From positions 21,901 to 85,900 of the forward strand of contig CAZTFQ010000002.1 in assembly GCA_964613035.1 (NCBI GenBank): a DNA stretch of 64,000 nucleotides, in the 5' to 3' direction. The position numbers were made by a program, and so were the translations under genes. This DNA is from an uncultured Christensenellaceae bacterium (lineage in GTDB: Bacteria; Bacillota; Clostridia; Christensenellales; DTU072). Below, in pieces: positions 6,443 through 19,843 of this stretch. The notes under the pieces were generated by a model that saw only the letters and a program-made list of their open reading frames with translations, ran no database searches and was not told the DNA's origin. Within the stretch, counting starts at the first letter, position 1; each line of letters begins with the position of its first letter.

Positions 6443-8203
6443 TTATTCTACCGTATAATGTACGTCGTAGAAGGTCGTATTGGAGAAGAACGTCATCAGT
6501 CCGAGATATCCGCCCGCGTAATTGGTAGAAGTCGTCTCTCCGACCAAAACGTCGTCGCAATAGAACTTGAACGTCTTGTTGTCGGCAGAACCTTCCGTCT
6601 TGATTGTCAATTTATGCCATCCTCTGCGCCACTCGAGAGCAATCCCTTTATATTCCGCAAGGTCCGCGGGGTTGTTGCCGCCCGCCTTGAAATATCTGGA
6701 GCCGCCGTCGTCTTCGGAGACGTTGAAGCAGAACCAGGACGCACCGGGATCTTCGTTGTTTTGGATGCCGAAAACCAGTCCCGCGGCTTTGCCTTCATAC
6801 ACGTTGAGATACGCTTCGAAGGTGAAGTTTTGTTCCGCAGTGACGTATTGGTCGGTCACCGCGAAGAAGTCGCCGACGTTAATGTTGTTAACTTCTATCG
6901 AGAGTCCGTCGGAAGAATCCGTCCAAGATCCCCATTTGTTGGTAACTGTCGGATGAGAGTTTTCTTTCTCTCTGTTATACATACCGCGAGTCAGCTCGAG
7001 GTCGTTGCCGATATAATAACGGACGTTGGTCCACTCGGCTTTACTTCTCCAAGTATCGAAGGAAATATATCCGCCGTTGTACGCTTCGTTGTTAAAAGTA
7101 GCGACCAAAATGCCGTCTATGTAGTAAGAAACCCATTTATCGGAGGTTATTTCCAGTCTGACGTGGACGGACTTCTTGCCGTTAAGGCGGAGTAAGGTCT
7201 TCTCGTTACTGTTGGGCGTGCCGTATCCGAACATACGGGCATTGTCTTGGCCGAAGTTGACGGAGACACCGTTCCAGGCAGCGCCCGGGTTTGCGGGATC
7301 GGTGATTCCGTAACCGATATTGGCACCGTAATCGTTCTCGTCGGCATATGAAGTACAGGTTACGTCGAAGTCCGCCACGAAGGCAGTCTCCGCAGGCACG
7401 TAAATCGTAGTGACCGCCTGAGCGTCGCCCCAGGTCGTATTGTCGCCCGTGATATATCCTTTGCCGCCCGACCAGGTTCCCCAGACGTGTTCCTCGTCCA
7501 TATCGGAAGAATAGTCGAAGTCGGTCATAAACGAGAAGTTCTCTACTATCGGTTCCATCTCGCATCTGGAGCAAGAGATCGACTTGCTGCCGTCCTCATA
7601 ATAAGAGGCGGCATTAATGATTTCTTCATCGTAATCGTGACCGAGAGCGGCAATATCTTCCTGTGCTACCAAGACGGTACCGCATCTGTCGCAATGACTG
7701 CCTTCCGTAAGCCCCTTTTCCGTACAGGTGGGATCTACCGCACTGTCGGTAACGGGATTGTGACCTGCGGGGACTTCTTCTTGAGGTACTATAACGGCAT
7801 TACACACTCCGCAGTGACTGCCTTCGGTCAAACCCTTCTCGGTACAAGTGGGAGCTACTGCTTGGTCGACGACTACGTCGTGCTCGACGGTGACGGAGAA
7901 CATAACGGTTTTTTCCAGATACGTAACCGTTATCGTTTGCTCTCCTACGGAGCTTGCGTCGTATCCGGAGATCATGGCGGAAGTTATCTCGATCGTTTCT
8001 TCGGTTTCGTTGTCGTAGACCGCCTTGATAACCGCTCCGCTCAAATCGATCGCATCGCCTTCCTTATACGTCAGCTTGGACGGCGCGCTATCGAGCACAA
8101 CGGACGCGAGTTGTTTTTCGGAATCGTTGTCGCAAGCAAAACAAAGCACGGCACACACTATAACGAGACCTAGTAACATAATCGTTAAAAGTTTCTTCTT
8201 CAT
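6443..8203 (-). CDS. Secreted lipoprotein with two Cys-rich repeats and a C-terminal LamG/concanavalin-like domain
   Basis: Signal peptide with lipobox (MKKKLLTIMLLGLVIVCAVLCFAC). Tandem approximately 37-aa repeats of the form PTCTEKGLTEGSHC.xC. The AAGLVFGIQNNEDPGASWFCFNV block is shared with the GH32 accessory domain. Start refined to the ATG at 8203 with a GGAGAAG RBS. Confidence 0.7.
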   Translation of the reverse strand: MKKKLLTIMLLGLVIVCAVLCFACDNDSEKQLASVVLDSAPSKLTYKEGDAIDLSGAVIKAVYDNETEETIEITSAMISGYDASSVGEQTITVTYLEKTVMFSVTVEHDVVVDQAVAPTCTEKGLTEGSHCGVCNAVIVPQEEVPAGHNPVTDSAVDPTCTEKGLTEGSHCDRCGTVLVAQEDIAALGHDYDEEIINAASYYEDGSKSISCSRCEMEPIVENFSFMTDFDYSSDMDEEHVWGTWSGGKGYITGDNTTWGDAQAVTTIYVPAETAFVADFDVTCTSYADENDYGANIGYGITDPANPGAAWNGVSVNFGQDNARMFGYGTPNSNEKTLLRLNGKKSVHVRLEITSDKWVSYYIDGILVATFNNEAYNGGYISFDTWRSKAEWTNVRYYIGNDLELTRGMYNREKENSHPTVTNKWGSWTDSSDGLSIEVNNINVGDFFAVTDQYVTAEQNFTFEAYLNVYEGKAAGLVFGIQNNEDPGASWFCFNVSEDDGGSRYFKAGGNNPADLAEYKGIALEWRRGWHKLTIKTEGSADNKTFKFYCDDVLVGETTSTNYAGGYLGLMTFFSNTTFYDVHYTVE

Positions 8204-8267
8204 GTTTCTTCTCCTTTTTCGCGACATCTAAATCGCGTATTTTTTCAATTAGACCGTAATACCGCGG

Positions 8268-9605
8268 TTAATCGGCGAGCTGTATCGAAAAATAATTGGT
8301 CTGCACCGCAGGGTCTCCCGCGGGAACTCCGTCCTTTCTCATGGCATTGGCGGGTGAACCGTTATAGATCGACATATCGTCGGTGTTTTGGTAAAACTCT
8401 ATGAACGCGGCGCTGATGTTTTTGACGTCCGTCGCGCCTATTACGGAATAAGGTATCGTCACGGTGAAGGAAAAATAGTCCTTGTTTCTCTCGATAACGA
8501 CCGCGTCGTCCAGCTTGTCGTCGGTGTCTCTTACTCTTCTCCAATTCCATATATACGTAAGACCCGATTTGTAATAGAGATCTCCGCTACCGTATACTCT
8601 TAAGACGGTATCCTTTTTGTTCAGCACCCAGGAAGCGGAATTGGCGGTATCCGTCGTCTTAATCGGAATCATCATAAACTCCGACGAGGTGAAATCGCCG
8701 AAGCCCACTCCTCTCAGTACGAGCGAGTCGGTAGTCGTCTCTATATTGAAATAGAAGTCGTCCGCGCTGTCGTTACGCACGTCGGAAGGATTGGCGAAAG
8801 AATATCGATATCCCGCGATAAGAGATTCTTTGTCGAAGTTGTCCGAGAAGTCTTTCCCGTCGAGATACTCATCGATATATTCTCCGTCCGAGACGTATTT
8901 TACGAACGAGAATATCCCGTGACAATTCTCGGTATATAGCACCGCTTCGACTTCTCCGGAGAATAAAGAGCGTGTGTAATAAGAGGTCATCGCCACGTCG
9001 TCGATAGAGACATATACCCGGTCGCCGCGTTTGATTACCTTGATATTGACGTAATTTCCGTCGGAATAAGCACTTTCGAAGCGTTTGATCGTCTCCAGCG
9101 TGTTGGTTACGCGTCCTTCTTTGACGTCCGTATAGAGGATTCTGTCCTGCATATTATCGCTGAGCTTGACGTAGAAAGAGAGCTCGTTGGGTCCGTCGGT
9201 CAGTTTAACGCCTATCCGTGCGGATTGACCGATATGATACACGCCCAGCGTCGTGACGTCCGCCTCCAGGATACAGTCTATGCCTCGGGTCTCTTTAACC
9301 GCGGCGCTTTGGTTGCCGCCTGAGACGGCTTCCACTGCGGAATAATCGTTAAGTACGCTCATCCCGGAAGTGATGCAATACGTTTTCATTTCTGTTAAAT
9401 CGGGCGTCATATAAGTGTCGTTTTTAGGGTCGGTAGGATTCTGAGAACCCGACGGGGTGGAGCCTGGTTGCGCGGAGCCGGACGGTTCCGTGCCGGAAGG
9501 GACTCCCGAAGACGGATCGGGATCGTTGTCGCAAGCAACGACGGTCGTTACCAGCAGTACGCATAGTATCAAAACTAAGATTATAGATATAACCGAGCGA
9601 CGCAT
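8268..9605 (-). CDS. Secreted lipoprotein, hypothetical
   Basis: Signal peptide plus lipobox (LLVTTVVAC), followed by an S/P/G-rich linker. The ATG at 9605 is preceded by GGAGGGAG. The track start is an upstream GTG. Confidence 0.65.
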   Translation of the reverse strand: MRRSVISIILVLILCVLLVTTVVACDNDPDPSSGVPSGTEPSGSAQPGSTPSGSQNPTDPKNDTYMTPDLTEMKTYCITSGMSVLNDYSAVEAVSGGNQSAAVKETRGIDCILEADVTTLGVYHIGQSARIGVKLTDGPNELSFYVKLSDNMQDRILYTDVKEGRVTNTLETIKRFESAYSDGNYVNIKVIKRGDRVYVSIDDVAMTSYYTRSLFSGEVEAVLYTENCHGIFSFVKYVSDGEYIDEYLDGKDFSDNFDKESLIAGYRYSFANPSDVRNDSADDFYFNIETTTDSLVLRGVGFGDFTSSEFMMIPIKTTDTANSASWVLNKKDTVLRVYGSGDLYYKSGLTYIWNWRRVRDTDDKLDDAVVIERNKDYFSFTVTIPYSVIGATDVKNISAAFIEFYQNTDDMSIYNGSPANAMRKDGVPAGDPAVQTNYFSIQLAD

Positions 9606-18920: not shown

Positions 18921-18937
18921 AAAAAGAGGATATCGAT

Positions 18938-19843
18938 ATGATTAAAAAATCCCTTTGCCTACTGCTCGTCATAACTCTCTTTTGTATGTGTCTATACGGT
19001 TGCGCCCCCGAAAACGACCCCGTTGACGGCGACCTGAATTCAGGGTCGACTTCCGGCTCCGTTGTTCCCGATGTCCCGGTTACTCCCGATTCTTCCGGCA
19101 CGCAAGAGCCCTCTGAACCGTCCGAACCCGACGGGAAATACTTCACCGTAACCATCAACCTAAACGACGGCTCGGCACCGACATATTATAAAGTAAAAAT
19201 CGGCGAAGCCTTTAATCGTCCTTCTCCTCCTCGGTACGGAAACAACGTTTTTCTCGGATGGTATTCTCGCGGAGCAGAATATGACTTTTCTTCTTCCGTA
19301 ACTTCCGATCTGGTTATCGACGCCGTATGGGAAAAGGTATACTCGGACTCTTTATACAGAGTCAACGGCGATTACGAAAAGATAAACAACGGTTACAAAT
19401 CCGTCGGCGGCTCGCTAATAATGGCTAACACCAACCAGGATTTCAATTGCGGCTCGATAGAGGTCACCGTCAATTCTCCCTCGAAATCCGACAGCGGCAT
19501 AATAGTGTGTCTTAATAACAACGGCTCGTCGACGTTTTGGGAAAGTGGCGTATCATACTACTTTTTCTTCGTCAACATTGACGGTAATGCCTATCTCGGC
19601 AAAATCAACAACGGTATCTGGAGCGCAAAAAAGGTCGTCCCGATATCCGATTACGTCCAAGGCGCCGATTATACGCTTAAAGTAGAACTCAACGGAACGG
19701 ATTTATATTGTTACGTAGACGGACAATTGTATATTTCTTTTTCCGAATATCGCTTTTTGTCGGGCGGAGGATTCGGGATACGCACGGGGACGTCGGGGGT
19801 CAGTTTTACCGATTTTAAAGTGAACGGAACTACTTGTCGGTAA
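18938..19843 (+). CDS. Lipoprotein with a Listeria-Bacteroides repeat and a C-terminal LamG-like domain
   Basis: Lipobox LYGCAPE. A P/S/E linker. The repeat is YFTVTINLNDGSAP...NNVFLGWYS. The LamG-like block is SGIIVCLNNNGSSTFWESGVSYYFFFVNIDG. Confidence 0.7.
   Translation: MIKKSLCLLLVITLFCMCLYGCAPENDPVDGDLNSGSTSGSVVPDVPVTPDSSGTQEPSEPSEPDGKYFTVTINLNDGSAPTYYKVKIGEAFNRPSPPRYGNNVFLGWYSRGAEYDFSSSVTSDLVIDAVWEKVYSDSLYRVNGDYEKINNGYKSVGGSLIMANTNQDFNCGSIEVTVNSPSKSDSGIIVCLNNNGSSTFWESGVSYYFFFVNIDGNAYLGKINNGIWSAKKVVPISDYVQGADYTLKVELNGTDLYCYVDGQLYISFSEYRFLSGGGFGIRTGTSGVSFTDFKVNGTTCR

Follow-up and report, generated by a model that had tools for sequence, protein, structure and literature searches.

A CBM66-GH32 fructanase gene and its neighbours in an uncultured Christensenellaceae bacterium: probably two adjacent regulator-plus-operon modules

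Do the secreted proteins encoded around a fructanase gene of an uncultured Christensenellaceae bacterium act as one fructan system, or do two systems happen to lie side by side? We analyzed a 64-kb window (the whole stretch of DNA given above, 64,000 nucleotides of contig CAZTFQ010000002.1), in which open reading frame (ORF) listing and Pfam/NCBIfam scans place eight genes within positions 6443-19843. A preliminary description of this region had proposed a single locus resembling a polysaccharide utilization locus (PUL), in which a glycoside hydrolase family 32 (GH32) fructanase and a set of paralogous LamG-like secreted proteins are controlled by two ArsR-fusion regulators. Our analysis favors instead two adjacent, independent regulator-plus-operon modules, a reading that we consider likely: module 1 (D/C-B-A) would serve extracellular fructan harvest, and module 2 (E/F-G-H) has the same layout. 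The genes, lettered by position, are as follows.

A, 6443-8203, minus strand: predicted lipoprotein with a Big_3 domain, Cys-rich repeats and two copies of carbohydrate-binding module (CBM) family 66; no catalytic domain
B, 8268-9620, minus strand: predicted lipoprotein with a distant concanavalin A-like (ConA-like) domain and a C-terminal domain; matches no database family
C, 9608-12040, minus strand: secreted multidomain GH32 enzyme, predicted exo-beta-fructosidase, with N-terminal CBM66
D, 12212-13159, plus strand: ArsR helix-turn-helix (HTH) plus about 220 residues; cytoplasmic regulator of module 1
E, 13302-14321, minus strand: paralogue of D; regulator of module 2, divergent from F
F, 14657-17191, plus strand: predicted lipoprotein with Flg_new-type repeats and three ConA-like lectin domains
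G, 17199-18920, plus strand: secreted protein with Laminin_G_3 and a calcineurin-like metallophosphoesterase
H, 18938-19843, plus strand: predicted lipoprotein with one Flg_new repeat and a divergent CBM66-like domain

C and B share 13 nt, where the end of C overlaps the start of B, and gaps of 8-18 nt separate F, G and H; we therefore group C-B-A and F-G-H into two operons, each divergent from one regulator gene (D from C, E from F). The starts of A and G are probably at 8203 and 17199. By inspection, A (LCFAC/DND), B (VVAC/DND), F (MIAC/TDN) and H (LYGC/APE) carry a lipobox followed by a Pro/Ser/Thr-rich linker, and C and G have Ala-X-Ala type cleavage sites and no lipobox. Rfam gave no riboswitch or leader in the region, its only match being three tRNA genes downstream of H, and NCBIfam has no model for any of the accessory proteins.

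The evidence that the two operons are distinct units comes from related genomes. Two metagenomic contigs (L001 and L002) carry a GH32 gene (encoding P0007), a divergent D-like gene (88%), and B-like (75%) and A-like (74-76%) genes, and beyond C-B-A come a 418-aa, a HAD, a YgjV and an MFS gene, just as in the window; module 1 is kept in these contigs without F-G-H. Upstream of the D-like gene in L002, the contig that extends this far, a different secreted protein of 362 aa (594-1682; weak ConA-like signal, E 6e-5) takes the place of E-F-G-H, suggesting a turnover of lectin-type genes around the GH32 module. For module 2, F homologues of about 50% identity together with a genome scan led to eight distinct related loci, all in metagenome-assembled genomes (MAGs) of uncultured Christensenella, Christensenellaceae or Clostridiales from human gut and ruminants. 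E-, F- and G-like genes are present in 8/8 of these loci and an H-like gene wherever the contig reaches far enough, and a GH32, A or B homologue lies within 10 kb in 0/8; the loci sit among housekeeping or unrelated genes. Judged by gene order, D/C-B-A and E/F-G-H are separate modules that stand apart in all related genomes found, and because they do, we see no conserved functional unit in their being neighbors in the window. The two ArsR-fusion regulators of the preliminary description are thus real, each being divergent from and co-conserved with one secreted-protein operon, but the single PUL-like locus that they were thought to control falls apart.

Neither module seems to correspond to a PUL in the strict sense. 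Sheridan et al. (2016) drew the boundary of a Gram-positive PUL (gpPUL) at three adjacent genes unrelated to carbohydrate use (PMC5320581). Between A and the MFS gene there are exactly three genes without carbohydrate annotation (the 418-aa protein, HAD and YgjV). Of the gpPUL elements, an enzyme (C) and a regulator (D) are present in module 1 and the sole candidate transporter is the MFS protein (2291-3679); as the strict definition requires a transporter and there is none in the operon, module 1 would fall short of it. Module 2 contains no glycoside hydrolase and no transporter. Pfam scans of 28 large window ORFs (8 in the region and 20 elsewhere) found no TonB-dependent receptor or SusD family protein of the Bacteroidetes PUL type. 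The 418-aa protein (5119-6375, plus strand), conserved beside the GH32 module in L001 and L002, has no Pfam/NCBIfam match and shows ferritin-like EEQH/ExxH motifs by eye.

If the operons are separate, what is the block that their secreted products share? In its literal form, the motif GLVFG...W(Y/F)C(F/M)N is confined to C (AAGLVFGIPNQADPGRAWYCMNV) and domain 2 of A (AAGLVFGIQNNEDPGASWFCFNV), with looser versions in F (GIGIIWN...YWYFHLN), H (GIIVCLN...YYFFFVN) and G (GVIFGN...CVNFG). BLASTP aligned residues 32-220 of C with residues 218-406 and 431-593 of A (E 1e-16 to 2e-18), and F with H (E 1e-8). We then searched all 240 window ORFs of at least 80 aa, filters off, with a CBM66-like hidden Markov model (HMM) made from 323 domain instances of database relatives. 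The two domains of A (4e-37 and 2e-42) and that of C (1e-48) scored strongly, H followed (4e-11), and F (5e-7, as three partial domains), G (3e-6) and B (2e-5) scored weakly, with all remaining ORFs of the window at E >= 1. The orthologues of B, F and G likewise gave weak scores (3e-6 for the B orthologue). In hhalign comparisons with the CBM66-like family, probabilities were 96% for H, 92.5% for F domain 3, 91% for G, 80% for the N-terminal domain of B and 79% for F domain 2, and F domain 1 joined via F domain 3 (97%) and H (95%). The C-terminal half of B (hhalign 0.2%) and the C-terminal domain of the regulators (1.8%) were ruled out as members of the ConA-like family.

These comparisons indicate that the shared block is a real paralogous domain, closely related in A and C. 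H appears to be a divergent relative of the GH32-associated CBM66 family, and the relatedness of F, G and B would hold only at the level of the ConA-like lectin superfamily. BLASTP, HMM and hhalign thus agree with the preliminary description that the block recurs in the secreted neighbors, whose genes lie where it had placed them. It had named four neighbors correctly and had missed B, a sixth member, as well as the second copy in A and the three copies in F. It had also correctly seen the Cys-repeats of A, the Flg_new repeats of F and H, the duplication in F and the metallophosphoesterase of G, and its expectation of a carbohydrate-linked beta-sandwich of the ConA/LamG-like superfamily was borne out. 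A generic sandwich with no carbohydrate link, the outcome that would have spoken against that expectation, does not describe A, C or H; F, G and B allow us to claim no more than a generic lectin fold. The suggested Laminin_G_3 assignment (PF13385) held for G, which alone passes the Pfam gathering threshold (41.8 bits vs. 27.6), and not for A, B, C, F and H, which have no Laminin_G_3 match at E <= 0.1; 'LamG-like' is therefore right only at the superfamily level. Weak Pfam matches of A and H to DUF6250 are below threshold and so were not used.

For A and C the block can be named more precisely. A profile of the three window domains (two from A, one from C) matched solely the CBM66 of SacC in the PDB, over its full length (E 1.3e-10), and A as a single sequence also matched it (4B1M, E 2e-4). 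Single-sequence PDB searches with H, F, G and B gave no direct SacC match and no informative match. The SacC module (PDB 4AZZ/4B1L/4B1M) founded CAZy family CBM66 and is a structurally and biochemically characterized levan binder (Cuskin et al., 2012, as cited in PMC6560043 and PMC12678895). By its similarity to this founding module and its association with GH32 catalytic modules, the domain in C and in both copies of A is, as far as sequence can tell, CBM66, and the earlier statement that no characterized homolog could be named proved wrong for these two proteins.

Searching 1.84 billion representative proteins with the window profile returned 486 relatives, and we determined the architecture of the best 150. 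Among these 150, a GH32 catalytic domain is found in 93, with the module N-terminal only in 60 of the 93 and flanking the catalytic domain on both sides in 27; the 57 without GH32 mostly have one to three tandem CBM66 domains. Non-catalytic CBM66 proteins like A thus appear to be a recurrent class, which to our knowledge is uncharacterized. A metagenome scan returned mainly GH32 enzymes of about 1530 aa with three CBM66 copies, and 12 of its 13 loci were CBM66-GH32 genes or truncated fragments with the same N-terminal CBM66 layout. On an unrelated metagenomic contig (L023, 108-3505), a standalone protein of 518 aa with two CBM66 domains is encoded directly upstream of a GH32 gene that also has two CBM66 domains, which we regard as an independent case of the accessory-CBM66-plus-fructanase arrangement. 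The isolated CBM66 domain of C, used as the query of a word-indexed homologue search, returned nothing, despite the existence of 82%-identical orthologues, and a scan of genome contigs with C gave no relative.

The enzyme and the two lipoproteins of module 1 are composed of the following parts.

C, signal peptide: cleavage ASA/AE
C, residues 53-223 (nt 11372-11884): CBM66, HMM E 1e-48
C, residues 224-312: cadherin/Ig-like spacer
C, residues 317-643: GH32 propeller, Pfam Glyco_hydro_32N E 1e-51
C, residues 674-800: GH32 C-terminal sandwich, Pfam Glyco_hydro_32C E 3e-16
A, residues 49-114: Big_3, Pfam E 7e-12
A, residues 120-225: Cys-rich CX9HCX2C repeats, two repeats and a third Cys pair
A, residues 236-409 (nt 7001-7522): CBM66 copy 1
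A, residues 425-593 (nt 6449-6955): CBM66 copy 2
B, residues 74-224: distant ConA-like domain
B, residues 251-450: C-terminal domain

C has both Pfam domains of a GH32 beta-fructofuranosidase/fructanase and an intact catalytic triad, with the nucleophile D334 in WLNDPNG, the RDP-type Asp D475 in RDA and the acid/base E530 in EC, in agreement with the fructanase assignment made earlier. Its nearest PDB relatives are exo-inulinases (8I12, 6e-62; 1Y4W, 5e-55), and an exo mode is suggested for C. The spacer between CBM66 and the propeller is a beta domain of about 90 aa with a weak cadherin-like Pfam signal. Orthologues share 82% identity with C (P0007) and 76% with A (P0002). B has no Pfam, NCBIfam or PDB match.

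In the two-module reading, C would be a secreted exo-acting GH32 enzyme whose N-terminal CBM66 holds non-reducing fructosyl ends of levan or inulin near the active site, releasing fructose. A, presumably membrane-anchored and displayed on its Big_3 and Cys-repeat spacer, would most likely capture fructan at the cell surface by avidity, so that released fructose and short oligosaccharides are kept near the cell; B, a second lipoprotein with a remote ConA-like domain, probably gives similar surface assistance. Products would then be imported by some transporter, for which the MFS protein is a possible candidate, and D would most likely bind the imported sugar product and alter transcription of the divergent operon. 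Work on characterized members shows what such a module can contribute. The Bacillus module BsCBM66 shows strong binding to levan and no more than slight binding to inulin (PMC6560043). Loss of CBM66 lowers the levan activity of SacC about 100-fold (Cuskin et al., as cited in PMC12678895). In Anaerostipes butyraticus AbFEH, CBM66 is needed for activity on polymer, and the enzyme without its M and CBM66 domains is about 400-fold less active (PMC12678895).

Several observations weigh against this reading. The synteny of module 1 says little, because L001 and L002 have identical gene sets and amount in effect to a single close relative (protein identity about 75-88%). No fold could be assigned to the C-terminal half of B, and F, G and B resemble CBM66 weakly (E 1e-5 to 1e-7) and no more closely than at the level of the superfamily. 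Genes for a sugar transporter, a fructokinase or another step of fructose catabolism are absent from both operons. The nearest transporter gene, that of the MFS protein (2291-3679, minus strand; MFS_1 E 2e-29, MFS_2 E 4e-9), is three unrelated genes away from A; it is syntenic with module 1 in the L001 relative, and its product scores 38 bits against TIGR00792 (gph), a weak GPH/sugar-transporter similarity far under the cutoff of that model. Finally, fructan specificity does not extend to the whole CBM66 family: a member from Cohnella recognizes lyase-treated xanthan but neither levan nor inulin (PMC11002231), so that membership alone leaves specificity unfixed. The GH32 association of this CBM66 subfamily is the main argument for fructans, and each CBM66 copy is accordingly described here as putatively fructan-specific.

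What, then, do the paralogous regulators D and E recognize? They are 34.5% identical (BLASTP 1e-57) and have the ArsR-type winged helix-turn-helix that defines ArsR/SmtB proteins. D is divided as follows.

D, residues 22-92: ArsR-type winged helix
D, residues 105-315: CBM6/35/36-like beta jelly-roll

The C-terminal ~220 residues of the regulators are covered by no Pfam or NCBIfam model. In an AlphaFold model based on 67 sequences (pLDDT 92.5), the best structural matches of this domain are CBM6/35/36-like, suggesting a predicted jelly-roll. A database protein (P0159) is identical to D, and at least 2767 homologues at 90% clustering align with it over the full length at 35-40% identity; these are annotated only as ArsR-family or HTH and come mostly from Clostridia, with one Bathyarchaeia MAG. 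Among the loci that we examined for regulators (including L006-L009 and L018-L022), carbohydrate genes adjoin 5/5 sampled distant family members, a small sample to which D and E can be added. The five neighborhoods are these.

Neighborhood 1: galK/galE and a secreted metallophosphatase
Neighborhood 2: sugar ABC system with sulfatases and glycosidases
Neighborhood 3: BNR-sialidase/GDSL protein
Neighborhood 4: GH43 with ABC permeases
Neighborhood 5: sugar-binding protein with permeases and GH2

The motifs NPDWW, GDFGGRRG, TQYG and GGFNLFG, rich in aromatic and charged residues, are invariant in the regulators; they fit a sugar site and prove nothing. From fold and context, we infer a sensing role for the jelly-roll and ligand sensing by D and E. 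It is conceivable, although we hold it a little short of probable, that D and E belong to a large, as yet uncharacterized class of cytoplasmic carbohydrate-sensing transcription factors, in which the jelly-roll binds an imported sugar and the ArsR helix switches glycan operons.

A candidate operator was found for E. The palindrome ATTMCAA-N6-TTGKAAT occurs exactly once per locus in seven distinct loci, only between the E-like and F-like genes, and the window has a degenerate copy in the same place.

L003: 9897-9916
L004: 9883-9902
L011: 7705-7724
L012: 9637-9656
L014: 671-690
L015: 1224-1243
L017: 7021-7040
Window, E-F intergenic region, 14408-14427: candidate operator, degenerate copy ATTACAATCTATGTTGAAAA, 2 mismatches

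The window copy is not significant alone (0.73 expected by chance). Taken with its placement in the other loci, the palindrome is a plausible operator for E, and E-type regulators appear to recognize it. No shared inverted repeat was found in the D-C intergenic region. ArsR-like regulators are already among the gpPUL regulators (Sheridan et al., PMC5320581), and a limited literature search found no described ArsR-CBM sugar regulator.

The role of module 2 is less easily read. Its three secreted proteins have the following domains.

F, after the MIAC lipobox: linker of about 80 aa rich in Pro/Ser/Thr/Glu
F, residues 175-352: lectin domain 1
F, residues 432-634: lectin domain 2
F, residues 640-844: lectin domain 3
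G, residues 37-210: Laminin_G_3, Pfam E 1.6e-10
G, residues 275-497: metallophosphoesterase, Pfam Metallophos E 4e-7
H, residues 69-127: Flg_new repeat, Pfam E 1.4e-7
H, residues 139-297: divergent CBM66-like domain

Flg_new is also detected in F (Pfam E 1e-7), and F domains 2 and 3 are an internal duplication (hhalign E 7e-84). The AlphaFold (AF2) model of F has domain pLDDT values of about 85-93, and its Foldseek matches (tandem galectins, laminin LG pairs, BT3469, L-type lectins and the GH32 C-terminal sandwich) are all concanavalin-A-like sandwiches. A phmmer search with H found matches inside the CBM66-like segments of eight database proteins. The G motifs PDxQ, GD, GNHD, TH and SGH are invariant in 10 orthologues; in motif I, PDxQ replaces the canonical DxH in 10/10, and the other metal-ligand motifs are kept. 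G has no close PDB relative, and its family profile matched only the uncharacterized LamG-like 4DQA. In these domains we see no demonstrable fructan link for F-G-H, and our best guess for the substrate of G is a phosphorylated glycan or another phosphoester polymer.

A more specific explanation of module 2 assigns it to phosphorylated polymers: the lectin lipoproteins would hold polymers such as teichoic acids, phosphoglycans or nucleic acids while G cleaves their phosphoesters, so that phosphate or sugars are scavenged. We regard this as a tentative suggestion and rather unlikely as it stands. It agrees with the signal peptide of G and its invariant metallophosphoesterase motifs (Gln for the usual His in motif I excepted), with G being the best conserved protein of the module (50-74% identity to orthologues, vs. 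35-58% for F and H), and with a distant regulator relative in a Lachnospiraceae genome that adjoins galK/galE and a secreted metallophosphatase of the purple-acid-phosphatase type. On the other hand, G lacks a close characterized or solved homologue, its activity is not assured given the altered motif I, and its sequence gives no substrate inference.

The same difference in conservation, measured between the same genome pairs, could be expected if F and H were exposed, fast-evolving surface proteins, and A, B, F and H might all be adhesins or elements of cell-surface architecture that bind host or microbial glycans, with an incidental linkage to GH32. Modules of the Big_3 and Listeria-Bacteroides (InlB B-repeat) kinds are a typical feature of surface adhesins, the number of lectin domains in F differs between relatives, and Foldseek finds F similar to galectins and to L-type lectin adhesins, SraP and YwfG among them. 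Nevertheless, A and B are translationally close to or overlap the GH32 gene in a conserved order, the domains of A belong to a CBM66 subfamily that is fused to GH32 in most of the best database matches (the 93 of 150 given above), and the L023 contig pairs standalone and GH32-linked CBM66 independently; we therefore think the adhesin explanation improbable. Least probable of all is a single integrated PUL-like fructan locus in which the six secreted ConA-like proteins act jointly under D and E: although these six alone among the window ORFs score with the CBM66-like profile, H seems to end in a genuine if divergent relative of the GH32-associated family, and D and E are paralogous and back to back, E-F-G-H recurs in eight loci away from GH32, A and B, the closest relative has D-C-B-A beside another upstream neighbor, a terminator-like hairpin lies between D and E, and a phosphoesterase has no obvious role on unphosphorylated fructans.

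Immediately beyond H, module 2 is bounded by three tRNA genes (19990-20378, plus strand), behind which lies a strong terminator hairpin (20382-20417). The tRNA genes are possibly also an integration site for the low-GC region that follows. Just past the tRNA cluster, in a low-GC patch (0.39), a gene at 21120-23753 (plus strand) encodes an 877-aa protein with a thiol-activated (cholesterol-dependent) cytolysin domain (PF01289, E 6e-33) followed by long Gly/Asn-rich GGNGG repeats, unusual for a Christensenellales commensal. The region is rich in surface-display proteins, among them a lipoprotein of 1017 aa (23869-26922, minus strand), which combines a trypsin-like domain with many Listeria-Bacteroides (Flg_new) repeats, and a 702-aa BspA-type leucine-rich repeat protein (33815-35923, minus strand). 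A BrxL-like Lon protease (26983-29950, minus strand; BrxL_N and BrxL_ATPase, E 8e-114) adjoins an AAA+ ATPase, and no further BREX components were found among the ORFs scanned. The genes gyrB, gyrA, mnmG, mnmE, ychF, cysS and pyrG, all on the minus strand, occupy 41344-61849, and the replication origin probably lies near the window.

Little has been established about the carbohydrate niches of Christensenellales, a group of gut bacteria that is abundant, associated with health and poorly represented in culture. From this locus one would predict that dietary or microbial fructans are harvested extracellularly by one of their lineages, through a CBM66-GH32 enzyme and dedicated CBM66 lipoproteins. 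The analysis also corrects the annotation of the accessory domain, which is a known CAZy module and no orphan. Recognition of the ArsR-plus-CBM-like regulators, which are now labeled only as metal-type 'ArsR family' proteins, should improve the prediction of regulons in Gram-positive glycan loci.

How does the locus compare with known systems? Module 1 looks like an ordinary new member of the CBM66-GH32 exo-fructanase kind, accompanied by non-catalytic CBM66 lipoproteins. SacC CBM66 folds as a ConA-like beta-sandwich and recognizes levan by its terminal fructosyl residues; the domains of A and C are homologous to it over the full length, and that of C is likewise appended to a GH32 enzyme of predicted exo action. 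Identity with the SacC module is low, roughly 20-25% as estimated by eye from the profile alignment. In contrast to SacC, where the module is C-terminal, C carries it N-terminal to the catalytic domain, and in the window CBM66 is also duplicated on a separate non-catalytic lipoprotein (A), extra copies on separate lipoproteins being the modest twist of module 1. C also resembles CBM66-GH32 exohydrolases of gut Firmicutes, namely A. butyraticus AbFEH (PMC12678895), Streptococcus mutans FruA and the E. rectale Eub-4 GH32 (PMC5320581), with which it shares secretion, GH32, CBM66 and a cadherin/Ig-like spacer that recalls the cadherin-like M domain of AbFEH (PMC12678895). Unlike these enzymes, C has no cell-wall anchoring region, surface retention being seemingly left to separate lipoproteins, and module 1 differs from their systems in its ArsR-fusion regulator and in having no linked ABC or phosphotransferase system (PTS) transporter or fructokinase.

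Non-catalytic lipoproteins with CBM domains beside a glycoside hydrolase are also found as SusE/F-type surface glycan-binding proteins (SGBPs) of Bacteroidetes and in gpPULs (PMC5320581). SGBPs are co-regulated with the hydrolase and concentrate substrate at the cell surface. Module 1 differs from a Sus-type PUL in its Firmicute host, the lack of SusC/SusD and the lack of a transporter in the operon, so that the resemblance would be a functional analogy only; in that sense, standalone multi-CBM66 lipoproteins would be Firmicute analogues of SusE/F-type fructan-binding proteins. The freshest element of the region is the ArsR-CBM-like regulator family. Its closest known counterparts include the ArsR/SmtB winged-helix repressors. 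CBM-based carbohydrate sensors are known in the RsgI anti-sigma factors of Clostridium thermocellum. Compared with RsgI, D and E have no membrane segment, and their CBM-like domain is cytoplasmic and directly fused to the DNA-binding domain.

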